Positions 2,901-47,276 of a stretch of 64,000 bases of DNA are shown here, piece after piece. Below the pieces are notes generated by a model. The model was not told the DNA's origin. It ran no database searches and worked only from the letters and a program-made list of their open reading frames with translations. Position numbers and translations under genes: made by a program. Position 1 is the stretch's first letter. Each line of letters opens with the position of its first letter. The stretch is from a virus (lineage: Duplodnaviria; Caudoviricetes), in IMG/VR virus record IMGVR_UViG_3300035696_000034, positions 8,487 through 72,486 of that record, one strand, 5' to 3'.

Positions 2901-3421
2901 AAAAAATAAGCAATGCCGCAAGTACTGTAATATTCTCCACAAAAGGAGGGTGCCCTTGTTGGGACAAAGCCAACAGAACTTGTAGCGCCCCTAACGGTCC
3001 TGTTTACTGCGGAAACGATCCTCATTCCGGACCTTCTGGTCACTGTCCATATCCAGATGTCCCTGAAGACAAAAAACAACATGGAGTTCCTTCTAGCTAT
3101 AGCGTTCAAAACGGATGTTGGAACTGTCAGCACAAATATGTATGGATTCAACAAGATGAAGATGTTGTATATTACTGTCATGTAGACAAGTCAAAACGAC
3201 CTTTAAGTGACACCTATGACGAAAGTCATGTTACATATATGAAAAATAAAGGTCTAGTTTTTGGTAGAGGAAATAAAAAGAAAGATCAGCAGTATTATAA
3301 AGAAATGACAAGACTAGACAGACTTTGGCGGAATTGGGCTAAAAAACATCTTGTACAAGAATCGGGCATATGTTCTAAGCATCTCCCTATAGCTCAGTCT
3401 GGTCAGAGTAGGGCTCTCTAA
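2897..3421 (+). CDS. Cys-rich hypothetical protein; 3' end overlaps the suppressor tRNA
   Basis: 174 aa ORF; its stop lies in the tRNA anticodon loop. Confidence 0.6.
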   Translation: MKKISNAASTVIFSTKGGCPCWDKANRTCSAPNGPVYCGNDPHSGPSGHCPYPDVPEDKKQHGVPSSYSVQNGCWNCQHKYVWIQQDEDVVYYCHVDKSKRPLSDTYDESHVTYMKNKGLVFGRGNKKKDQQYYKEMTRLDRLWRNWAKKHLVQESGICSKHLPIAQSGQSRAL

Positions 3422-3456
3422 AAGCTTTTACCTGGGTTCGAATCCCAGTAGGGAGA
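3383..3456 (+). tRNA. tRNA-Sup (CUA anticodon, amber suppressor)
   Basis: CTCCCTA/TAGGGAG acceptor, GCTC/GAGT D stem, GGGCT/AGCTT stem with loop CTCTAAA, T arm CTGGG-TTCGAAT-CCCAG; no encoded CCA. Confidence 0.8.
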
Positions 3457-3484
3457 TTTGAAAACTATAAATTTTAAAATAGTC

Positions 3485-6657: not shown

Positions 6658-7473
6658 ATGCCACTAAGATTCGTTTATGCGACGGACATCCACGGAGACC
6701 TCAGCAAATATGAAAAGGTGTATCAGTTCGCATTAGATCACGATATAAATCTGATACACCTAGGTGCTGATCTTTTGCCAAAAGGATCAGACATAGAAGT
6801 CAAACAAAAAAAGTTCATCAAGAAAGATTTTAAGAATTTCTACGAAACTTGCGAAGATAAAGGCATAAAAGTTCTCAGTTTTTTCGGGAACGACGATCTC
6901 TACCCGATGAAGAAATATTACAGAGAATATGCTGATCTTCTGGACGAAAGACCTTACACTCAAGACGGCTATGAATTCAAGGCTTACGGATATGTGCTCG
7001 ACTACCCGTTCGGATTGAAAACTGCATGTAAGCTTGACTATTCTGGGTGGAGATTCCCGGAGGAATACATAAGCGCTCCCTTTGAATACACTGAAAAAAA
7101 AGGTTGGGAAACTGTCAAGGATTTAGGAAAATATTTTGCTAAAAAAGGGACGATAGAGGATGATTTAAAAAAGATCCGTGCTACAGATAAAACCATTATG
7201 GCTATACACATGCCGCCACAATCCTTGAATCTAGATGTGTGCATAGATGGTCGGAGAGTGGGATCTAAAGCTGTATTGGACTGGGCTGTGAAAAATCAAC
7301 CACTTGTGCTCTTAACTGGGCACATTCATGAGAGCCCTTCTGTTACTGGTACATGGAAAGTAGCAGTAGGAAAAACCCTGGTCATTCAACCTGGTCAATC
7401 AGAACTTGATACTGTTTTAGTCCTAATCGAACTCGAGGAAGATGGCGTAAAAACTTACCTGGTCAAGCTTTGA
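6658..7473 (+). CDS. metallophosphoesterase (calcineurin-like)
   Basis: DIHG, GADL, GNDD, GHIHE motifs. Confidence 0.85.
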   Translation: MPLRFVYATDIHGDLSKYEKVYQFALDHDINLIHLGADLLPKGSDIEVKQKKFIKKDFKNFYETCEDKGIKVLSFFGNDDLYPMKKYYREYADLLDERPYTQDGYEFKAYGYVLDYPFGLKTACKLDYSGWRFPEEYISAPFEYTEKKGWETVKDLGKYFAKKGTIEDDLKKIRATDKTIMAIHMPPQSLNLDVCIDGRRVGSKAVLDWAVKNQPLVLLTGHIHESPSVTGTWKVAVGKTLVIQPGQSELDTVLVLIELEEDGVKTYLVKL

Positions 7474-7988: not shown

Positions 7989-8231
7989 ATGGCCGGAACA
8001 GATAGCACTTTTAGTGCTTATGGATCTGAACAGAGTAACACAGCCCAGGGGACAGTCTCTATGAAAGACCAGGGAAACGCAGGTCTGGGTAATCCTCAGG
8101 GTGACAGAGTCGTAAATACCGAAGGCGAGAACAAGCTTATCGAGGACGGATTCTTTGGAACGTTTCAACAGTCTACAAGACTGACGAACTCGATTCAATA
8201 CAACCCGGCGTCTCTTTATCCGAATAGCTAA
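7989..8231 (+). CDS. hypothetical protein
   Basis: AAGGAG RBS, 80 aa. Confidence 0.6.
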   Translation: MAGTDSTFSAYGSEQSNTAQGTVSMKDQGNAGLGNPQGDRVVNTEGENKLIEDGFFGTFQQSTRLTNSIQYNPASLYPNS

Positions 8232-8248
8232 GATAGCTAAAATAGTTC

Positions 8249-8277
8249 TTGCATATTTCTGCTTTCGGGTGTATATT
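8249..8277 (+). promoter_or_regulatory. promoter of tRNA array 1
   Basis: TTGCAT-17nt-TATATT; GTGTATATTTAGTA shared with the promoter at 20201. Confidence 0.75.
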
Positions 8278-8311
8278 TAGTAGGATTCAAAAAACAGGAG
8301 AGCTACTTTCA

Positions 8312-8407
8312 ATGACTTCTCGCACAATCATGACGATCATCAGTATGGCTATCATTAGTGATTTTGATAGCATGGATGATTTCATGTCTCAGCGGGAGTT
8401 TTTTTGA
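8312..8407 (+). CDS. attenuator leader peptide 1 (31 aa, MTSRTIMTIISMAIISDFDSMDDFMSQREFF)
   Basis: AGGAG RBS at 8296-8300; codons match the anticodons of the downstream tRNAs. Confidence 0.85.
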   Translation: MTSRTIMTIISMAIISDFDSMDDFMSQREFF

Positions 8408-8475
8408 TAAAGTAGCATAACACAGAATCAAAAAGAGGCTCCCGCCGAGAGATCGACGGAAGCCTCTTTTATTTT
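8390..8475 (+). terminator. attenuator 1: antiterminator/intrinsic terminator pair
   Basis: terminator AAAAGAGGCT..AGCCTCTTTT (8431-8470) plus U tract; GCGGGAG..TTTTTGAT can instead pair with ATCAAAAA..CTCCCGC. Confidence 0.85.
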
Positions 8476-8477
8476 AT

Positions 8478-8557
8478 GGCAATGTAGCTCAGTTTTGGTA
8501 GAGCGGTGCTCTCATAAGGCGCGTCAGTCGGCGGTTCGATCCCGCCCATTGCCACCA
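8478..8557 (+). tRNA. tRNA-Met or Ile2 (CAU)
   Basis: cloverleaf, loop CTCATAA, encoded CCA. Confidence 0.85.
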
Positions 8558-8575
8558 GGTAAAAAGAAGGTTTTT

Positions 8576-8821
8576 ATGAATAGCAACGAAAATCACACAC
8601 AATGCCTCTTAATAAGCGATGGAGGCATGCAACAGGTCGCCTGGATACCAACAGTACGGGCTAACCTGAAGAGGATTAGAATAGACGGTACAGTGTTTAA
8701 CGTGAAAGAGCGATACAGCACGGTACCGAGTCGGGAAGTCCTAGATGATAGTTCAGATTACAGAAGGCACAGGAAAGCGACTGATCTGGAAAGCGGGTCT
8801 TGGAAAAGATTACCAGAATGA
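8576..8821 (+). CDS. hypothetical protein
   Basis: in-frame ATG after AGAAGG within ORF 8495..8821. Confidence 0.55.
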   Translation: MNSNENHTQCLLISDGGMQQVAWIPTVRANLKRIRIDGTVFNVKERYSTVPSREVLDDSSDYRRHRKATDLESGSWKRLPE

Positions 8822-8828
8822 AAATTAA

Positions 8829-8901
8829 TGCGGGAGGCTAGGCCCTGTGGTCTGGGAACTCTCATAAGGTTCCAACCTACGTTCAACTCGTAGTCCCGCA
8901 A
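8829..8901 (+). tRNA. tRNA-Met (CAU), atypical D arm
   Basis: TGCGGGA/TCCCGCA acceptor, GAACT/GGTTC stem, loop CTCATAA. Confidence 0.7.
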
Positions 8902-8958
8902 ATTTTGTTATCAATAGCAGCTTTAATTTCAACAGCTATTAATAAAATATCAACTAAT

Positions 8959-9036
8959 AGCAGGGTCGTCTAGTCCGGTTAAGATACTGGGCTCATAACC
9001 CGGAGATCGTTCGTTCAAATCGAACCCCTGCAACCA
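8959..9036 (+). tRNA. tRNA-fMet (CAU), initiator type
   Basis: 1-72 mismatch, GGG/CCC anticodon stem, CCA. Confidence 0.9.
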
Positions 9037-9044
9037 CTCACAGC

Positions 9045-9111
9045 GGGAGACCGACGTCAGTAGCTTTAGTAAAGTATCCGGTAAAGGATCTCTATTGACC
9101 TTTCGTCTCCC
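9045..9111 (+). ncRNA. tRNA-sized structured RNA candidate inside array 1
   Basis: GGGAGAC(C)GA/TCGTCTCCC, GTCAGTAG/CTATTGAC and two small hairpins. Confidence 0.45.
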
Positions 9112-9122
9112 CATGAATTAAA

Positions 9123-9198
9123 GGGCGTATCGTCCAACGGTTTAAGATGCGAATCTGATAAGTTCGAGATCGTAGTTCAATTCTACGTACGCCCACCA
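9123..9198 (+). tRNA. tRNA-Ile (GAU)
   Basis: cloverleaf, loop CTGATAA, CCA. Confidence 0.9.
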
Positions 9199-9204
9199 TT
9201 TTAA

Positions 9205-9277
9205 GGCTGTTTAGCCTACGCGGTCACGGCGCTCGCCTGAAGAGCGAGATATTCCAGTTCGACTCTGGAAGCAGCCA
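9205..9277 (+). tRNA. tRNA-Phe (GAA)
   Basis: cloverleaf, loop CTGAAGA; no encoded CCA. Confidence 0.9.
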
Positions 9278-9294
9278 TTTTTTAAGTTTACAAG

Positions 9295-9381
9295 GGAGAG
9301 TTGGGTGAATGGTAAAACCACGAGTTTGCTAAACTCGCGTCCGTCAAGGACATGCAGGTTCGAGCCCTGCACTCTCCGCCA
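9295..9381 (+). tRNA. tRNA-Ser (GCU)
   Basis: long variable arm, loop TTGCTAA, G73, CCA. Confidence 0.9.
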
Positions 9382-9388
9382 GTTTTAC

Positions 9389-9465
9389 GGGTCTGTAGTT
9401 TAGTTGGTTAAAGCACCTGATTGTCGATCAGGATATCGGGAGTTCGAATCTCCTCAGACCCGCCA
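9389..9465 (+). tRNA. tRNA-Asp (GUC)
   Basis: cloverleaf, loop TTGTCGA, CCA. Confidence 0.9.
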
Positions 9466-9474
9466 TTTTATACA

Positions 9475-9549
9475 GGGTTGCTCGTTCAGCGGCTAGGACC
9501 TACGGTTGTCGACCGTATGACAGGAGTTCAACTCTCCTGCAGCCCGCCA
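9475..9549 (+). tRNA. tRNA-Asp (GUC), second copy
   Basis: cloverleaf, loop TTGTCGA, CCA. Confidence 0.85.
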
Positions 9550-9562
9550 TCTTAAAAATCCT

Positions 9563-9591
9563 TTGTATCCGCCTCTCCAAGATAGTATATT
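9563..9591 (+). promoter_or_regulatory. sigma70-type promoter (probably leaderless mRNA)
   Basis: TTGTAT-17nt-TATATT, ATG 5 nt downstream with no SD. Confidence 0.55.
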
Positions 9592-9596
9592 AGGGT

Positions 9597-10157
9597 ATGG
9601 CTCTCTTCCTTAAATCCTTCACGCTCAAGACCGAATACAACGGGATGAAACCATTTAAAATGGACTTCCACGATGGCCTCAACATAATAGTGGGCGAGAA
9701 CGGTTCTGGGAAATCCTCCCTGCTCCGTTTAATCACTACCGACCAAAAAGATCTACGCCTACTTTGTTATGTAAAAGCTGACCCTGTTAATTTTAGATTT
9801 CTGGATACTGAAAAGGATAATCCCCGACTAAAAGGGGACTTAAGTGATTCCAAAAACATAGCGTTTGATGTTGGCTCTCATTTTTGGTCTCATGGTGAGA
9901 CGATGCTGCCTCTGGTCTTGGCCACGAAAGAATTTGAAGGGATTGTTGTTCTTGTTGATGAGCCCGAATCTGGTATTTCCCTGACCAACCAAAAGAAGAT
10001 ATTTGATTCTTTTCAGGCATCTATAAAGAAAAACTGCCAGATAGTGGTGACTACCCATTCGTACGTCATCATAAAGAATTCTGACACTGTCTATTCTCTG
10101 GATAAGAAGGAGTGGGTGCCCTCTAAAGACTATTTGGACGGGATAGGGGTTGAATAA
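9597..10157 (+). CDS. short ABC/AAA-family ATPase
   Basis: GENGSGKS Walker A, VLVDEPE Walker B, TTHS H-loop. Confidence 0.85.
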   Translation: MALFLKSFTLKTEYNGMKPFKMDFHDGLNIIVGENGSGKSSLLRLITTDQKDLRLLCYVKADPVNFRFLDTEKDNPRLKGDLSDSKNIAFDVGSHFWSHGETMLPLVLATKEFEGIVVLVDEPESGISLTNQKKIFDSFQASIKKNCQIVVTTHSYVIIKNSDTVYSLDKKEWVPSKDYLDGIGVE

Positions 10158-20257: not shown

Positions 20258-20383
20258 ATGGATCGTAAAATCTCTATAACCCTAACATCGTCCGCGCTCT
20301 GTTTGTGCGCAACTGCACAGACATGGGCCGGATTACGCTCACATCTGTATCTTACAGGGCGTAAAAGGCGGGGTTTAGAGTAA
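20258..20383 (+). CDS. attenuator leader peptide 2 (41 aa, MDRKISITLTSSALCLCATAQTWAGLRSHLYLTGRKRRGLE)
   Basis: codons match all 17 downstream tRNA species; weak SD, and an overlapping 7-aa uORF starts at 20245. Confidence 0.8.
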   Translation: MDRKISITLTSSALCLCATAQTWAGLRSHLYLTGRKRRGLE

Positions 20384-20499: not shown

Positions 20500-20955
20500 A
20501 TGAAGACTAAAGAAAGACTAATAGCAAGAGAACTACGTCAAAAAAAAGGAATGTCTTTACGAAATATTTGCAAAAAATTAAATATAGCTAAAAGTACGGC
20601 TCGTGCTTGGACTAAAGATATAAAGATAACTGAAAAACAAAAAGAGAACCTTAGAAAGAACGTAACAAATAGCCAGTTTACTACTAAAATTCAAGACAAA
20701 GATTTGTTTGTTTGTCCCTGTTATGTAAACAGAAAATGTATAAAAAAAAGAATTTTAAAAAAGGCCCTCATTCCATATATATGCGCGCTTTGTAGTAGAC
20801 CTCCTATATGGGAAGGACAAAAACTAGTTCTTATACTAGATCATATAAACGGAAACAATCTTGATTACAGGTTAAGCAATATAAGATTTTTGTGTCCTAA
20901 TTGTAATAGCCAACAAGAAACGTTTTGTAGAAATAAAAAGGTTAAAAATGTTTGA
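20500..20955 (+). CDS. HNH homing endonuclease with N-terminal HTH
   Basis: CALC..LILDHINGNNLDYRLSNIRFLCPNCNSQ. Confidence 0.85.
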   Translation: MKTKERLIARELRQKKGMSLRNICKKLNIAKSTARAWTKDIKITEKQKENLRKNVTNSQFTTKIQDKDLFVCPCYVNRKCIKKRILKKALIPYICALCSRPPIWEGQKLVLILDHINGNNLDYRLSNIRFLCPNCNSQQETFCRNKKVKNV

Positions 20956-21625: not shown

Positions 21626-22522
21626 GTGGGTATGAGGAGCAAAAAGTTTGATGAAAAAAAAGAAGAGATATTACAATGGGTTAAAGAAAATAGAAGCAAA
21701 GCTTTTATATGCAAAGAAATGGATTGTAGACCCAGCACTTTGGATCACTATTTCAAAGAAATAAGTATAATTTATGCGGGAAACATGGGGTGTAAAGGCT
21801 ACAGAAGACCAGCTCATAAAATACCTGTTAAAGAATATCTAGGTACAGGAAAACTTATAAGGTCTCATGCATTAAAATTAAAACTAATAGAAGAAGGAGT
21901 CAAAGAGAAGAAGTGTGAGAGGTGTGGTTTAGAAAAGTGGCTTAGCAAAGACATTCCCCTTGAATTACATCATATTAATCAAAATAGATTTGACAACAGA
22001 CTAGAAAATTTAGAAATTCTCTGTTCAAATTGTCATGCTTTAGAAAACAGCAAAATAAAAAGAAGGATAGATATCTTAGAAAGATTTTGTTTGAATTGTA
22101 ATAAAAAAATTGAAGTAAAAGATAGTCATTACAGAAAGTATTGTTCTAATGAGTGCATAAAAGAAGCAAAAAGAAAAATTAAAAAAATAAGGTTTTGTTT
22201 GAGTTGCAGTAATGAATTTAGTGGTAGAAATAAAAAATTTTGTTCAGAACTATGTAAAAAAGAACACGATAAAACATTAAGAAAATTTGAAATAGAAAAA
22301 GATGTATTAGAAAAGCTAGTTAACTCCGTATCAACTTCTAAAATTGCTAGAATACTAGGAGTTACAGACAATGCTGTTTCTCATAGATGTAAACGATTAG
22401 GAATAAAAAAACCTCCTAGAGGTTTTTGGGCAAAAAAGTGCTCAGGAAAATCTCCAGACATCACAAAAATAGACAAAAATTTAATAGATTACTTACAGAA
22501 GAAAGGCTATAGAATAGATTAA
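21626..22522 (+). CDS. HNH homing endonuclease with Zn-ribbon repeats
   Basis: CERCG..LELHHINQNRFDNRLENLEILCSNCH; repeated CxxC..KxCSxxC. Confidence 0.85.
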   Translation: MGMRSKKFDEKKEEILQWVKENRSKAFICKEMDCRPSTLDHYFKEISIIYAGNMGCKGYRRPAHKIPVKEYLGTGKLIRSHALKLKLIEEGVKEKKCERCGLEKWLSKDIPLELHHINQNRFDNRLENLEILCSNCHALENSKIKRRIDILERFCLNCNKKIEVKDSHYRKYCSNECIKEAKRKIKKIRFCLSCSNEFSGRNKKFCSELCKKEHDKTLRKFEIEKDVLEKLVNSVSTSKIARILGVTDNAVSHRCKRLGIKKPPRGFWAKKCSGKSPDITKIDKNLIDYLQKKGYRID

Positions 22523-22658: not shown

Positions 22659-23252
22659 ATGGATCTCTACATTGAAACTCGTGATCGCATGCTGGCTAAA
22701 GACAGGGATATATGGCTATGGTGCATGAACAACAAATGTGTTTACCTAAATATCGGATGTGGAGATAGCGTTTACGCAGGAGCGATAAACATAGACAAAT
22801 ATGTCAGAAGAAAAGATGTCTTACCTGCAGATGCCCTCTATCTTCCATTTAAAGATAACAGCGTGGATTTCATATATTCAGCCCATTCTCTGGAGCATTT
22901 GACTATAAGGGATGGAAAAAAGGCTCTAAAGGCCTGGTATAAGGCTTTAAAGCCAAACGGAAGACTTATAATAGAGTTGCCCGACTTAGAATGTATCTGT
23001 CGCAATGTCCTTAATTCTATATATCCTAAACAGCTACAATGGAACATTTATACTCTTTTTGGATATCAAATCGATCCTCGAAATTCAGACAGTTTAGATG
23101 CCAAAGCAGATCCTGGTCAATTTCATATGAGTGGATATACCCAAACAAGTCTATGCTTGGAACTTGCTATGTTAGGATTCGAGATAAAAGAGTTCCTGCA
23201 TACTGATGGTTATGGGACTCCCAACATGCATGTAGACGCCTTCAAAAGATAA
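22659..23252 (+). CDS. class I SAM-dependent methyltransferase
   Basis: LNIGCG, DALYLPFKDNSVDFIYSAHSLEHL, LKPNGRL. Confidence 0.85.
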   Translation: MDLYIETRDRMLAKDRDIWLWCMNNKCVYLNIGCGDSVYAGAINIDKYVRRKDVLPADALYLPFKDNSVDFIYSAHSLEHLTIRDGKKALKAWYKALKPNGRLIIELPDLECICRNVLNSIYPKQLQWNIYTLFGYQIDPRNSDSLDAKADPGQFHMSGYTQTSLCLELAMLGFEIKEFLHTDGYGTPNMHVDAFKR

Positions 23253-23572: not shown

Positions 23573-23904
23573 ATGCGAAAGGCAAGCCTACCTTAACGGT
23601 TACAGGTGAAACCGAAGATGGAAAATTAGTTGTATCAGGTGTCTTTGAACTCATGTCCTCTGTACTCGGAGTCCCCTTAGAGTTTCTCCTCGAGATGTTA
23701 AAAGAGAGAAACATTCTAGTAAGTTGGACTCACTTCTATAACTCCTCTGTAGAACATCTCTGGAGTTATAAGACAACAAGGGAGAGAGTGAGTACAGCTG
23801 TGTTTGAGGTTTACGGCCCGGAGTACAGAGATGAGGTGATGAAGAGGTTGGATTATTATCATAGGAGCGTATCAGACAGGTCTCCAAAACCTGATTTACT
23901 GTAA
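23573..23904 (+). pseudogene. hypothetical protein with apparent 1-nt deletion just after the start codon
   Basis: AAAGGA RBS and ATG 23573 are out of frame with the AKGKPTLTV... ORF; adding one G gives MAKGKP. Confidence 0.5.
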
Positions 23905-23944
23905 TTGGGTGAAAATGGGGGTTCGACTCCCTCCGCTCCTGCCA
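23863..23944 (+). tRNA. atypical tRNA-Trp (CCA): no D arm, long variable arm
   Basis: AGGAGCG/CGCTCCT, CAGGT-CTCCAAA-ACCTG, GGGGG-TTCGACT-CCCTC, G73-CCA; only 7 nt between acceptor and anticodon stems. Confidence 0.7.
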
Positions 23945-25010: not shown

Positions 25011-25550
25011 ATGTACGTAATGGTTGATATCGAAGCGGATGGTCCGATCCCAGGGGATTATTCGATGATCTCGTTCGGGGCGGTTTTGATCGACAGATCA
25101 CCTTTAGCTATATCGACTAACAAGGAAAAATTCGATACTACCTTTTTTGGGAAGCTCCATCCCATATCTGATCAATTCGTTCCGGAAGCTCTGGCAGTTT
25201 CTGGTTATACCAGAGAAGAGACTATGACATTCCCCGATCCCCTCAAGGTTGTGCAGAATTTTGATCTATGGCTGCACGAGCATAATCGGGAGCAGCCAAA
25301 GTTTATTTCCGATAATAACGGATTCGACTGGATGTTTATGTGTTGGTATTTTTGGCATTTTCTCCATAAGAATCCATTCGGTCACAGTTCTACAAATTTA
25401 GGGTCATTTTATAAGGGCATCGAGAGGAGTTTTAAAAGAAATTTTAAACATCTTCGGAAGACCAGGCACTCGCATAATCCTATGGAAGATTCAATCGGTA
25501 ATGCAGAGGCATTTTGCACGATTATTCAGAACAATCATGTCGAGTATTAA
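25011..25550 (+). CDS. DEDDh 3'-5' exoribonuclease (Rv2179c-like)
   Basis: VDIEADGP, DNNGFDW, HNPMED. Confidence 0.8.
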   Translation: MYVMVDIEADGPIPGDYSMISFGAVLIDRSPLAISTNKEKFDTTFFGKLHPISDQFVPEALAVSGYTREETMTFPDPLKVVQNFDLWLHEHNREQPKFISDNNGFDWMFMCWYFWHFLHKNPFGHSSTNLGSFYKGIERSFKRNFKHLRKTRHSHNPMEDSIGNAEAFCTIIQNNHVEY

Positions 25551-30744: not shown

Positions 30745-31860
30745 ATGAAACTCATCCGTTCTTCCAAATGTAGCTTAAAATTCGCTACAACCTCCAAACT
30801 CTCTAAGCTTCGTAAGGTGCTTTCTGAATGTGGCCGAGTCTGTAACATCTTTATTGATTACTTTTGGAAAAGTGGCACTCCCTCTAAATCTGAACTCTTA
30901 AAAGAAATAGTAGACATCCCACAAGGCACTTGGCTGACCGCTCGGCTTCGTAAAATAGCCGCCCGGGAAGCTATAGACATGATTAATGCTGTGAGAGAGA
31001 GGTGGAAGGATAAACCTTGGAAGATCTCTATGCCCATACATAAGGGCAAGAGAGCTTACGTCTCCTGTACCATAGCGGATCTTCAGGAAAAAGGTGGTTC
31101 TAAGGAATTTGATGCCTGGCTTCATTTGTCCTCTGTCGGGAAAGAGACAATCCTGGACCTTCCTATTAAATTTCATAAACATTATAATAAATTAGCTCTT
31201 CAAGGAAAACGCTTGAATTCCTACATCCTTACAAATAAATATGTCCAGTTTTCATTTGAAATAGATGTAGGTGAGAAGAAAAATGGCGCTAACGCTATAG
31301 GCATAGATACTGGGATCAAAGCCCTTGCCTCTTTAAATAACGGCGCTCAATTCGGTTTAGATATTGAAACCCTTATCGAGCGTATCAAACGCTGTCAGCA
31401 TGGCTCTAATGGTCAGAAACAAGCCCGGAAAGCCTTTAAACAGAGGATAGATGAAGCCGTCAAAGAGGTAGTTAAACATTTTGAGCATATAGATTTGGTC
31501 GTGGTAGAAGCATTAAAAAACATGAATTACAAGAGTAAACTCAAACGTCGCTTGAGTAAAAATATGCGGCGTTCTATCGGCACTTGGGCGTATAGGTACT
31601 GGTTAAAAAGGCTGGAGCAAGCCTGTGAGACTAACCGTGTTAGTTTTCGCACCGTGGCTCCTTTTTATACCAGCCAAACATGTCCGAGCTGTGGTCATGT
31701 CGATAGGGGGAATAGAGTAGGACAAATGTTCCGGTGCCTAGTATGTGGTCACACAGGTAACGCAGATATTATTGCAGCCAGGAACATATTGACTCGATTT
31801 CTTACGGGACTCTACGGTGCCCGTTACAAACCATACGAAACTATATTTAATATTTCATAG
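30745..31860 (+). mobile_element. tnpB: TnpB/Cas12f-like RNA-guided endonuclease (IS200/IS605 family), no tnpA nearby
   Basis: RuvC motifs IGIDTG, VVEAL, TSQTCPSCG..CLVCG..NADIIAARNI; 3' hairpins at ~31804-31864. Confidence 0.88.
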
Positions 31861-32231: not shown

Positions 32232-32444
32232 ATGAACAAACAATCTTTAGAAGAAAAGGTAAACAATATCCTTCGTAATCATACAATCAGCGTCCTTAAT
32301 AACAATGTTGTTAATGTCCCTAAAAAAGGACCGGTGTCGGAAAGTTTTATCAATGAGATTAAAAAAAGCAGAGAGAACATCTTAGAAGAAGAAAAACGTA
32401 CTTCCAAGAAAATACTAGCACTTCTAAAGACAAGGCAATCATGA
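32232..32444 (+). CDS. hypothetical protein
   Basis: AGGAG RBS. Confidence 0.55.
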   Translation: MNKQSLEEKVNNILRNHTISVLNNNVVNVPKKGPVSESFINEIKKSRENILEEEKRTSKKILALLKTRQS

Positions 32445-33298
32445 ACTCTGTTAAAACTAAAAAGAGCTCTTACACGGACAATTCGACCGAAGAGAAGATC
32501 CTGACTCAATATATGGAAGATGTTGGGAGATACAAACCCTTAAGTTCGGTAGAAGAGCACGAATTGGCAAAGCGTATACGCAAAGGGGACAAGAAAGCAG
32601 CGGAGAAATTAATCAGGGCGAATCTTACTTTTGTGATAACGGTAGTCAACAATTACAAAAATCAAGGATTGCCGCTTTTGGATCTTATTAATATCGGTAA
32701 CATGGGACTTATACGAGCAGCCAAAAAATTTGATGAAAGAAAAAACTATAAATTCATATCCTATGCAGTGTGGTGGATACGTCAGGCTGTCTTAGGAGCC
32801 CTAGCGGATCAGTCTAGAGCTCTGAGGATCCCTATGCATTGTGTTTCTCAGATCGTGAGTATGAGAAAAATAAAAGAAAAGATTGAGAGAGAAAAACAAA
32901 GAGAAGCTTATCCAGAAGAGATTGAGGCAGCACTAGCTCTTAAGCGCCCTACAGCCTTGAATAAATTGATATCGATAGATACTCCTCATTTATCTCTCGA
33001 TACCTCCTCTTTTGATAACGGAGCGCCTTTGGTGGAGCTTATGGAAGGTGAGAGCGACTCTCCGGAAGATTTAGTTTTAAAATTGTCAGAAAAGGAAGAT
33101 ATTAAGAGAAAGCTAGGTTGTCTGACAACGATGGAAAAAAAAGTTATCTGTGAATACTACGGTATAGATAAAGAGGACGCCAAGACTCTTGCAGATATTG
33201 GTAAAAAGTTTAGACTCACGAGAGAGCGCGTGCGTCAGATTAGAGAGCAAGCTCTAAAAAAGCTACGAGCCTGTTACAAAAACAGTTGCAGGGAGTAA
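32441..33298 (+). CDS. RpoD/SigA-family sigma-70 factor lacking region 1.1
   Basis: LIRANL.FV, DLI..GN.GLIRAAKKFD, FISYAVWWIRQ, LTRERVRQI. Confidence 0.93.
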   Translation: MNSVKTKKSSYTDNSTEEKILTQYMEDVGRYKPLSSVEEHELAKRIRKGDKKAAEKLIRANLTFVITVVNNYKNQGLPLLDLINIGNMGLIRAAKKFDERKNYKFISYAVWWIRQAVLGALADQSRALRIPMHCVSQIVSMRKIKEKIEREKQREAYPEEIEAALALKRPTALNKLISIDTPHLSLDTSSFDNGAPLVELMEGESDSPEDLVLKLSEKEDIKRKLGCLTTMEKKVICEYYGIDKEDAKTLADIGKKFRLTRERVRQIREQALKKLRACYKNSCRE

Positions 33299-34117: not shown

Positions 34118-34753
34118 GTGGTCCACGTGAGTGTCATAGTCTTAACCGCCACTGGATATTTCTGGGATGAAGTGTCTGACTTGAGAAGGGTCCTTAGGTG
34201 GATGCTGAACGACAAAATTGAAGTACTGAGGTACGACGAGAATCATGTCTATCAGAGTGCGGGAGATTTTGGCCGTGAAGGTACCGTTTTGAGGATTAAG
34301 ATACCTCTTGTCGTGCGTCTTCTGAAATTCGCTGGATGTAAAATAAAGGATGAAATAATAGCCTATTCCAGTGATGCTGTATACGATAGGGACAGGGACA
34401 TTTGTCAATATCTTCACGAATATGTCCTTGACGAAGATGGAAATGCTACTCCTTGTGCTCCTTACAAGTATAGGTGCACTGAAGACGAAAAGTCAATTGA
34501 CCATATTATCCCTATATCTAAGGGAGGTAAGACTGATTTCTTGAACTGTGTTACAGCATGTAAATACTGTAATGAAATTTTGAAGAGGAATCATCTCCCT
34601 AAAGAAGCTGGTCTGAAATTAATTCGTCAGCCTTTCATACCAACCAGGAAGGTTGGAGAGTTATGGATGCCGAAGTTCACCTATAATCCTCATAAGATAG
34701 CTCACAAGGCTTTCTTTGAGCTTATGGGCTGGGAGTTCAGTCACAAGGCATAG
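34118..34753 (+). CDS. HNH endonuclease (McrA-like)
   Basis: VYDRD..CQY..SIDHIIPISKGGKTDFLNCVTACKYCN. Confidence 0.85.
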   Translation: MVHVSVIVLTATGYFWDEVSDLRRVLRWMLNDKIEVLRYDENHVYQSAGDFGREGTVLRIKIPLVVRLLKFAGCKIKDEIIAYSSDAVYDRDRDICQYLHEYVLDEDGNATPCAPYKYRCTEDEKSIDHIIPISKGGKTDFLNCVTACKYCNEILKRNHLPKEAGLKLIRQPFIPTRKVGELWMPKFTYNPHKIAHKAFFELMGWEFSHKA

Positions 34754-45509: not shown

Positions 45510-47276
45510 TTACCCAAAATAGGAAGACAAAACATTCCTGACAGAGGAATTTCTTATCTTAAAAAAATCTCCGCTTTTTCGGTCTTCTGCACTGGACTTT
45601 ATCAAAGCCTCAAAAGCATTTTTATCTTTTAAGATAGACTCTATTAATTTTTTGGCTTCTTCTTTTCTTTTGCTTATATCCGGATCCCCCATACGGCCTT
45701 CCATCATCAGCTTTTTCAATCTGGCTATAACCGCTCCCAAAGCTTCTTTATCTATGCCGTACTGGTCCCTTATCTCGTCTCCAGACAGCGGAGGGACATA
45801 TTCATATTTATCTCTTTTGATTAAAAGTCCGTTCTTCTTGTCTTCTTCCACTAGCTTCTTTATTTTAGCTTCCAGATTTTCTACTTTTTTTATTCCTGCT
45901 TGATCTTTAGCGTCGGCTTTCAAAATAGCTATCGCATCATCCAAGTCATCGTGGAGTTTCTCTATGTATATCCTCATCGTCCTTTGTTGAGTGCTGGGTT
46001 TTTGACCCTCGAAATCCTTAAATCCCATATGGGAATGTACGATATTTTTTACGGAGTTGATAGTCTTGCTGTCAAAAGTAAGCTCTCTCATTATTTTTTC
46101 CGTTAATGCGGCACTAGCTTTTTCATGACCTATAAATTGTACACGCTGTCTACCCTCTTTGTCCACCTTTTCCGTCTTGGTAGCGATTTTACCTACATCA
46201 TGGAATAAAGCCGCAAGACGAGCCTTAAGCGTTGGCGGAGTCTTACTCATGACTTCCATGGTATGATCCCAGACAGATTCGCCTTTATGGAAGACTTTGT
46301 CGTGGTAGACGGTAAGAAGCTTATCAAACTCAGGCGAAAGGTATTTCAGGAACCCAAGCTCCTTCATAAGATTGAGGCCTTGAATAACCTTATTAGAATC
46401 GGGGAAGACCAGTATCTGCTCGAGCTCATCTCTGATACGCTCTTTAGAGAGCCTGCTGGAGATGTTCTTGTGACCCTCAGGGCTGTTTACGAACTGTTTA
46501 ATAGTTTCTTTGGTCTGAGGATCTATCTTGAAATCTGGTAGCTTCCCCTCGAACCGAATTAATCGCATTATTCTTAATGGATCTTCCTCATATATCTTCT
46601 GGATGCCTTCAGGATGCTCGGGTGGCTTGAGCTTTTTATTTTGAATATCCTGTATGCCTCCAACAAAATCTTTGACCTCACCAGTAACGATATTCTGATA
46701 GAGTGCGTTTATCGTAAGATCTCTTCTCCTACTATCGTCCTCCAGAGAAGTATAATCGACACGAGAAGGGGCTCGTTTCATTTCATCATAAGGTCCTTCT
46801 TTTCGTGGAGGAGTGATCTCTATGACATAGCCAGTCACATCGACTCCGTCTGTTATATAAGCTTGTCTGTTGCTCTCGGCATGATCTTGATGGGGATTAA
46901 GAAGAACAACTCCCCATATACCAAAAGCTTCTTTAAGAGGATGAGGATTATTTGGGGTAGTAATACCTAGAGCTTGTGTGAGTTTTTTGGCGAAGACTTC
47001 TGCAGCTTTCATCCCTTGCTCGGGATCATCGATAACCAGATCGAGATCTTTCGGGTTTCTTCCCAAAAGACGGTCCCTAACAAACCCACCCGTACTATAT
47101 ACTTTGTCTTTGTAGCTTGGAAATTCGGAGACTATGGTATCCTTAACGAGCTTTTCAACGGCATTGGTTTGTCTGGTTAATTCCTCTTTGGACTTTATTT
47201 CGTCCGGGACTTTAAACGCAGCTCCAGCTTCTCTCTCGTTCAGGAATGAGGAGACTACTCTTAGTTTTGAAACCAT
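45510..47276 (-). CDS. cca: CCA tRNA nucleotidyltransferase (class II) with HD domain
   Basis: GGFVRD.LLG..PKDLDL, DDSRRRDLTINAL, EDPLRIMRL.RF, SKERIRDEL, HT..V..LAALFHDVGK. Confidence 0.9.
   Translation of the reverse strand: MVSKLRVVSSFLNEREAGAAFKVPDEIKSKEELTRQTNAVEKLVKDTIVSEFPSYKDKVYSTGGFVRDRLLGRNPKDLDLVIDDPEQGMKAAEVFAKKLTQALGITTPNNPHPLKEAFGIWGVVLLNPHQDHAESNRQAYITDGVDVTGYVIEITPPRKEGPYDEMKRAPSRVDYTSLEDDSRRRDLTINALYQNIVTGEVKDFVGGIQDIQNKKLKPPEHPEGIQKIYEEDPLRIMRLIRFEGKLPDFKIDPQTKETIKQFVNSPEGHKNISSRLSKERIRDELEQILVFPDSNKVIQGLNLMKELGFLKYLSPEFDKLLTVYHDKVFHKGESVWDHTMEVMSKTPPTLKARLAALFHDVGKIATKTEKVDKEGRQRVQFIGHEKASAALTEKIMRELTFDSKTINSVKNIVHSHMGFKDFEGQKPSTQQRTMRIYIEKLHDDLDDAIAILKADAKDQAGIKKVENLEAKIKKLVEEDKKNGLLIKRDKYEYVPPLSGDEIRDQYGIDKEALGAVIARLKKLMMEGRMGDPDISKRKEEAKKLIESILKDKNAFEALIKSSAEDRKSGDFFKIRNSSVRNVLSSYFG

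Follow-up and report, generated by a model that had tools for sequence, protein, structure and literature searches.

The window analysed here is a stretch of 64,000 nucleotides that forms the 3′ part of a 72,486-bp phage contig, and the positions given below refer to the window unless stated otherwise. The contig carries 31 tRNA genes as well as many small open reading frames (ORFs), and it derives from peat metagenomes; the sequencing runs listed as containing its sequence are two peat metagenome DNA runs, with no RNA run among them. Among the closest protein relatives of its metallophosphoesterase (6658-7473) is P0002, with 72% identity, and relatives of the enzyme occur on contigs of 440–590 kb. 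Therefore, the contig is regarded as a fragment of a giant-phage genome. Downstream of the gene of an 80-residue protein (7989-8231) lies a compact leader unit (8249-8475), which is directly followed by an array of eight tRNA genes (8478-9549).

The unit opens with a predicted sigma-70-type promoter (8249-8277), in which the −35 hexamer TTGCAT (8249-8254) is separated by a 17-nt spacer from the −10 hexamer TATATT (8272-8277). The transcription would start near position 8284. The extended promoter motif TATATTTAGTA occurs three times in the whole contig, each time before a leader unit. The Shine-Dalgarno sequence AGGAG (8296-8300) is placed 11 nt 5′ of an ATG codon. Both elements were already named in the preliminary description of this region and are present in the sequence. 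The leader ORF reported there is also present, with 31 codons and a TGA stop, and only its numbering was one base off: the ATG lies at 8312, so that the ORF covers 8312-8407, and the TGA (8405-8407) is followed by an in-frame TAA. The sensing core of the ORF spans codons 6-25 (8327-8386), and a recount gave the same composition as first noted, namely 18 of the 20 codons being ATG, ATC/ATT, AGT/AGC, GAT or TTT/TTC. Further downstream, an intrinsic terminator (8431-8475) is formed by the stem 8431-8448/8453-8470, with a free energy of −23.0 kcal/mol, and a U tract at 8467-8475. It ends 3 nt 5′ of the first tRNA gene.

The composition of the array was predicted by ARAGORN and agrees with the three Met, one Ile, one Phe, one Ser and two Asp tRNAs expected from the first inspection. 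All genes are located on the plus strand, in the order tRNA-Met(CAU) (8478-8557), tRNA-Met(CAU) (8829-8901), tRNA-Met(CAU) (8959-9036), tRNA-Ile(GAU) (9123-9198), tRNA-Phe(GAA) (9205-9277), tRNA-Ser(GCU) (9295-9381), tRNA-Asp(GUC) (9389-9465) and tRNA-Asp(GUC) (9475-9549). The Rfam tRNA model matches seven of the eight. The first two tRNA-Met genes are separated by an ORF of 81 codons on the same strand (8576-8821), which matches no Pfam family.

Alternative folds of the leader RNA

The 197-nt leader RNA (8284-8480) compared with its shuffled versions gives a folding energy z-score of −5.7. Its minimum-energy fold in the absence of a ribosome combines two elements. The first is a protector (segment 1:2, 8297-8421), in which the start of the ORF is paired with its end (8297-8323 with 8392-8421) and which sequesters segment 2 and encloses two inner hairpins, 8329-8341/8375-8386 and 8348-8357/8362-8371. 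The second is the terminator (segment 3:4). The alternative to both is an antiterminator (segment 2:3, 8387-8450), formed by pairing of 8387-8408 with 8427-8450. The complementarity between the 3′ end of the leader ORF and the 5′ arm of the terminator, on which the original proposal was built, is borne out by the sequence, where GCGGGAG (8392-8398) and TTTTTGAT (8401-8408) face ATCAAAAA (8427-8434) and CTCCCGC (8439-8445). When segment 1 is removed, the antiterminator becomes the minimum-energy fold (−26.9 kcal/mol vs −23.0 kcal/mol for the terminator). Its pairing exceeds that obtained with shuffled upstream sequence (z = −6.0), and none of 300 shuffles was as good. The stop codon (8405-8407) lies within the 5′ strand of the antiterminator, which is the geometry expected if the ribosome finishing the leader causes termination.

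The influence of translation on the choice between these folds was modelled by placing a ribosome on successive codons. The ribosome footprint was taken to extend from 15 nt upstream to 14 nt downstream of the first base of the A-site codon, and pairing across the ribosome was forbidden. With the ribosome on codons 13-22, the predicted probability of the terminator is 0.00–0.11, and it rises to 0.90–0.98 with the ribosome on codon 23 through the stop codon, which sets the switch at codon 22/23. The terminator is also predicted for a ribosome on codons 9-12 (0.72–0.90), because of a partial alternative fold. Given this modelled termination, some of the 20 presumed sensing codons may be ineffective. 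An alternative model, in which the footprint was masked and pairing across the ribosome was allowed, gave termination at most positions; it was superseded by the model described above.

The same equilibrium modelling was applied to three further leaders, namely the ortholog in the related locus L011 and the two other leaders of the contig, A and C, which are described below. Only the leader at 8312-8407 switches, and the other three favour the terminator at every ribosome position. For these leaders a kinetic argument is therefore needed, in which the antiterminator forms before segment 4 has been made.

Related units and the match between leaders and arrays

The relatives of the locus were gathered through alignment of phosphoesterase homologues, which gave 4 viral and 80 metagenome loci, and one true ortholog of the leader unit was found, that of L011. 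The gene order of L011 is the same as in the contig: a suppressor tRNA, the phosphoesterase, the 80-residue protein (60% identical to the protein encoded at 7989-8231), and then tRNAs in the order Met-Met-Met-Ile-Phe-Ser. Between the 80-residue gene and the first tRNA-Met, L011 carries the promoter-like sequence TTGACT-17-TATATT, a GAGG motif in the place of AGGAG, and an ORF of 30 codons (L011:5108-5200); the stretch CTTTCAATGA is conserved. Codons for Ile (ATY), Ser (predominantly AGY), Asp, Phe and Met also make up the L011 leader, in a different residue order, and its peptide is much less hydrophobic than that of the leader at 8312-8407. In the fold of L011, too, the two ends of the ORF are paired with each other (z = −6.8), and both the antiterminator and the terminator are kept. 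The unit's own covariation is limited to three pairs. The antiterminator pair 8396-8441 is G-C in the contig and A-T in L011, which is a compensatory change, and the terminator pairs 8435-8466 and 8436-8465 are changed on both sides in a compensatory manner.

Several other searches were made. A search of viral and genome contigs with an alignment of the 80-residue upstream protein brought up no additional relatives, the phosphoesterase used as a single query protein gave no matches, and the conserved-terminator pattern was without matches in viral contigs. The scan of viral contigs with the promoter pattern returned one unrelated phage, which lacks tRNAs, and the phage GenBank collection was matched at the level of tRNAs only.

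A structure-first search, in which a strong terminator near a tRNA was required together with a short ORF ending just upstream, yielded 15 units in 11 distinct related giant-phage contigs. All 15 units retain the ORF, the antiterminator and the terminator. In each of them, the 5′ arm of the terminator is paired with the final codons of the ORF (z from −1.8 to −6.7), and the paired sequences themselves vary. The content of the leaders follows that of the arrays. In four units an Asn/Gln/Pro array is headed by a leader of these three amino acids (with runs such as NNNQPNNPQP), and in two units a Thr/Met/Gly/Val(/Ala) array is headed by a leader of Thr, Gly, Val and Ala. Five units have leaders of Phe, Lys, Cys, Leu, Ser, Met, Tyr, Ile and His before arrays of just those tRNAs. 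One further unit combines an Arg leader with a pair of Arg tRNAs, Arg(ACG) and Arg(UCG). The tracking is imperfect in the paralogues; for example, the Thr/Gly/Val leader of L002 includes Ala codons, and its visible array contains no Ala tRNA.

The alignment of the five units of the Phe/Leu/Lys/Ser type allowed covariation to be evaluated. In the antiterminator, five pairs are changed on both sides, a number reached in 7 of 500 shuffles, and 81% of the cells are paired, compared with 38–61% when the register is slid. In the terminator, three pairs are changed on both sides and 84% of the cells are paired. A single column of segment 3 shows covariation with each of the two partners between which it alternates. 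The N-termini are alike between the B-type leaders (the leader at 8312-8407 and its L011 ortholog) and those of the Thr/Gly/Val type, which suggests that the units are paralogues with rewritten sensing cores.

The Arg unit lies on the minus strand of L040 (1223-1328 of the reverse complement) and is a single-amino-acid version of the attenuator device: a 16-codon leader is followed by the antiterminator/terminator and by the tRNAs Arg(ACG) and Arg(UCG). All four Arg codons of this leader are CGN, set against a background Arg usage of 69% AGR that was taken from the contig of the window (G000).

Two sister units are present in the contig of the window. Leader A (genome 2558-2638, 5.9 kb before the window) precedes a Pro/Asn/Gln array and ends on TAG; it contains nine consecutive Asn/Pro/Gln codons. 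Leader C (20258-20383 of the window, plus strand) precedes an array of 15 tRNAs for Cys, Leu, Tyr, His, Thr, Ala and Ser(TCN). Its core uses each of the six Leu codons once. TTA appears twice in leader C, although array C is without Leu(UAA). Each of the two leaders is the top window of the contig for the codons of its own array. Scored against their own arrays, the contig's three leaders reach 9/25, 20/30 and 22/40 codons, whereas comparison with each other's arrays gives 1–7.

For the leader at 8312-8407, the codons readable by the array amount to 18 of the 20 in the core and 20 of the 30 after the start codon. Among all 56,082 open 20-codon windows in the six frames of the contig (mean 4.08, standard deviation 2.02), the leader ranks at the top with its score of 18, and all windows scoring at least 14 fall within it. 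A binomial test on the whole ORF, which involves no picking of windows, gave P = 9.5e-9 against a background of 18.5%, defined as the share of the nine array-read codons in the long ORFs of the phage. Over 743 kb of related DNA, this codon set is best matched by two windows, the leader and its L011 ortholog, and the remaining high windows are Phe-rich reading frames of T-rich sequence. For the long leaders of the Phe/Leu/Lys type the binomial test is weak, since about 40% of all codons are readable by their arrays.

The match extends to synonymous codons. In the two B-type leaders, all 11 Ile codons are ATY (ATC or ATT), whereas ATA is the commonest Ile codon in the long ORFs of the phage (680 of 1,403, 48%). 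The Ser codons of the core are AGT, AGT and AGC, which are read by Ser(GCU), and AGY accounts for 9 of the 14 Ser codons in the two leaders, compared with a background of 33% (P = 0.017). Where the synonymous choice is informative, 20 of 25 codons in these leaders are array-readable vs 10.6 expected. Pooled over all units, the codon-level test gave z = 2.2, a value distorted by the doubtful tRNA Ser(ACU) in array C. This ARAGORN call (23863-23944, plus strand) has an odd D-arm and anticodon region and is of uncertain identity, and it distorts the codon-set statistics of array C. Together, the exclusive use of ATY, the bias toward AGY and the CGN-only Arg paralogue argue that the leaders report particular tRNAs rather than amino acids.

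Proposed mechanism and its alternatives

The architecture contains every element by which leader-peptide attenuators are recognized at the sequence level: the promoter, the codon-enriched ORF, the terminator, the antiterminator, the protector and the covariation. With a probability of about 0.8, the unit is a ribosome-mediated (leader-peptide) transcription attenuator, which gates a phage tRNA operon by reading the decoding speed of the codons of its own tRNAs. The attenuation logic set out in the preliminary description gains support from the fold modelling, from the architecture conserved in L011 and 13 paralogous units, and from the tracking of arrays by leaders.

In the proposed mechanism, transcription would start at the promoter 8249-8277, and a ribosome would load on the 31-codon leader while RNA polymerase proceeds. 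The outcome would then depend on the rate of decoding. A ribosome that meets no delay at the Met, Ile(AUY), Ser(AGY), Asp and Phe codons should reach the tandem TGA-TAA and cover segment 2 (8392-8408), which would leave segment 3 to pair with segment 4 and end the transcription at the U tract (8467-8475). Shortage of even one of the corresponding aminoacyl-tRNAs would instead make the ribosome stall within codons ~6-22 and keep the 5′ part of the ORF off segment 2. The antiterminator 2:3 could then form, allowing readthrough into the eight tRNA genes. The new tRNAs would relieve the stall and the operon would be turned off again, which would make the unit a negative-feedback sensor of tRNA supply that answers to any of five species. 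A leader that is not translated would adopt the protector fold, in which the terminator acts. The translation of the leader and the conditional character of the termination are deduced here from the sequence and the fold models. According to this scheme, the eight tRNAs are probably made only when ribosomes read the matching codons slowly.

The physiological signal is likely to be the abundance or integrity of tRNAs rather than the supply of amino acids, since an increase in tRNA would do nothing against amino-acid starvation and the match is specific for isoacceptors. In the opposite assignment, the leader would report a shortage of Met, Ile, Ser, Asp or Phe through uncharged tRNA and not the shortage or damage of the tRNA itself. 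The physical event is identical in both cases, an A site left empty for want of aminoacyl-tRNA, the multivalent ilv and thr leaders operate in this way, and the sequence offers no direct separation of the two inputs. However, additional tRNA is useless without its amino acid, so that the output would not answer the signal. A sensor of amino acids would also leave the isoacceptor-level match unaccounted for, with ATA avoided and AGY preferred over TCN, and Ser is divided among the arrays by codon box in a manner that the leaders follow. We regard starvation sensing as an unlikely function of the unit. Under the preferred assignment, in which tRNA supply is sensed, possible triggers of the shortage include host shut-off, codon-usage mismatch and tRNA-cleaving defences.

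Another explanation dispenses with regulation altogether and takes the hairpin for a plain terminator closing the transcript of the upstream gene, or for a structure directing tRNA 5′ processing, preceded by a chance ORF that is not translated. The hairpin does resemble a good constitutive terminator (−23 kcal/mol with a U tract), and it is found 240 nt downstream of the gene at 7989-8231. Yet the predicted promoter stands between that gene and the hairpin, and a constitutive terminator placed 3 nt before the array would silence it. Chance is also hard to reconcile with a codon match that is unequalled in 743 kb, and with 15 units in which the ORF has been preserved, at similar length and still paired to the arm of the terminator, with covariation. 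This explanation is considered very improbable. It is scarcely credible that the ORF encodes a functional small protein, e.g., a membrane peptide whose function dictates the richness in Met, Ile, Ser, Asp and Phe. The hydrophobic N-terminal and acidic C-terminal halves of the peptide speak for such a protein. Against it stand the L011 ortholog, which keeps the composition and not the residue order and is much less hydrophobic, the paralogous leaders, which differ widely in composition and each match their own array, and the synonymous codons, which are biased toward the anticodons of the array.

Turning from the single unit to the family, we lean, with less confidence than for the unit itself, toward the view that giant phages possess modular and fast-evolving "codon-census" attenuators, in which the leader of each array is rewritten to list the codons of its tRNAs. 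Such devices would make tRNA production demand-driven and self-limiting, and they would allow the loss of host tRNAs through shut-off, codon mismatch or tRNA-cleaving antiphage defences to be detected and repaired array by array. Direct control of tRNA genes by the speed at which their own codons are decoded would be the first case of its kind.

Known systems and the gene content around the arrays

The enterobacterial leader-peptide attenuators comprise the multivalent leaders of ilvGMEDA, ilvBN and thr, as well as those of trp, his, leu and pheA. The multivalent ilv and thr leaders are the closest in architecture, and the closest in logic is the pheST attenuator. Similarly to the former, the phage unit joins a promoter and a short leader rich in regulatory codons to the alternative protector, antiterminator and terminator structures; several amino acids are represented in one leader, and the stop codon is positioned so that a finishing ribosome would block the antiterminator. 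The phage unit differs in its predicted target, which is tRNAs and not biosynthetic enzymes, and in addressing five tRNA species at the level of isoacceptor codons. Its product, the tRNA, would relieve the stall directly and not through metabolism. The pheST attenuator of Escherichia coli (pheM leader) uses stalling of the ribosome at cognate codons to control part of the translation machinery, which is the arrangement proposed here. That system is cellular, controls an aminoacyl-tRNA synthetase and senses one amino acid.

A different way of reporting the state of a specific tRNA is employed by the T-box, which binds the uncharged tRNA directly, through the specifier codon and the acceptor end, and without translation. 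It resembles the phage unit in using transcription attenuation for the control of translation-related genes, whereas the phage unit would sense through a translated ORF and has no T-box fold. The T-box riboswitch was rejected as a candidate, as Rfam cmscan over 8150-9650 (E <= 1) gave no T-box match. In this search no Rfam leader family was assigned to the unit, and the only non-tRNA match was a sub-threshold PyrG_leader, with 26 bits vs the gathering threshold of 65.

The tRNA genes are generally thought to be controlled at initiation, by growth rate, the stringent response or repressors, and we know of no account of how phages time and dose their own tRNAs. Full-text searches of the literature did not retrieve any description of tRNA genes, phage or cellular, under leader-peptide attenuation. 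The closest parallel is the trn operon of Anabaena sp. PCC 7120, a long tRNA array which is silent and becomes induced when translation is impaired (PMC8421152). The induction of a tRNA array under translational stress is shared with the proposed phage system, but the Anabaena operon is controlled by the transcriptional repressor TrcR (PMC10272220), and the 2021 description of the operon makes no mention of a leader, attenuation or a terminator (PMC8421152). On the sequence comparisons presented above, the phage units are strongly supported as a new application of a known mechanism, ribosome-mediated attenuation, to phage tRNA arrays through leaders that list the codons of the array.

Such an attenuator on tRNA genes would represent the shortest possible feedback loop of translation, in which the ribosome measures a tRNA on a test message written in the tRNA's own codons. 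The leaders would predict which tRNAs are, from the standpoint of the phage, limiting in the host, and they would link the tRNA arrays of phages to current research on bacterial immunity directed against tRNAs. They could also offer synthetic biology a natural and compact sensor of the availability of single tRNAs. As the leaders are rewritten when the arrays change, the family provides a clean system for the evolution of attenuators.

The gene content around the arrays gives further observations. The phage encodes a CCA-adding enzyme with nucleotidyltransferase head, RNA-binding and HD domains (45510-47276, minus strand), which is consistent with the maintenance of a tRNA pool by the phage itself. 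A sigma-70-family factor with regions 1.2, 2, 3 and 4 (32441-33298, plus strand) is encoded inside the operon of the third tRNA array and could recognize the promoters of the form TTGACA-17-TATATTTAGTA that precede the three leaders. Amid the long tRNA array, there are also mobile-element genes, namely a strongly matching HNH endonuclease gene (34118-34753, plus strand), two HNH endonuclease matches just below the Pfam cut-off (20500-20955 and 21626-22522, plus strand), and a TnpB/Cas12f-like protein (30745-31860, plus strand). The same region holds a methyltransferase (22659-23252) and an RNase T-like exonuclease just below the Pfam cut-off (25011-25550). The interspersed protein genes indicate that the attenuated operons mix tRNAs with protein genes.

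Two tRNAs with anticodons to stop codons were also noted. The contig encodes an amber-suppressor tRNA (anticodon CUA; 3382-3457, plus strand), which is kept in relatives (L011:1648, L052:9171 and L054:4209). A leader with amber codons was looked for before this gene and not found; the tRNA lies directly 3′ of a protein gene and lacks a leader unit of its own. TAG is still the stop codon of 13 of the 83 long ORFs in the contig, so that reassignment of TAG is not obvious. The second, a tRNA with the anticodon UCA (L003:8313-8411), opal-suppressor or SeC-like, is located inside the attenuated array of a relative.
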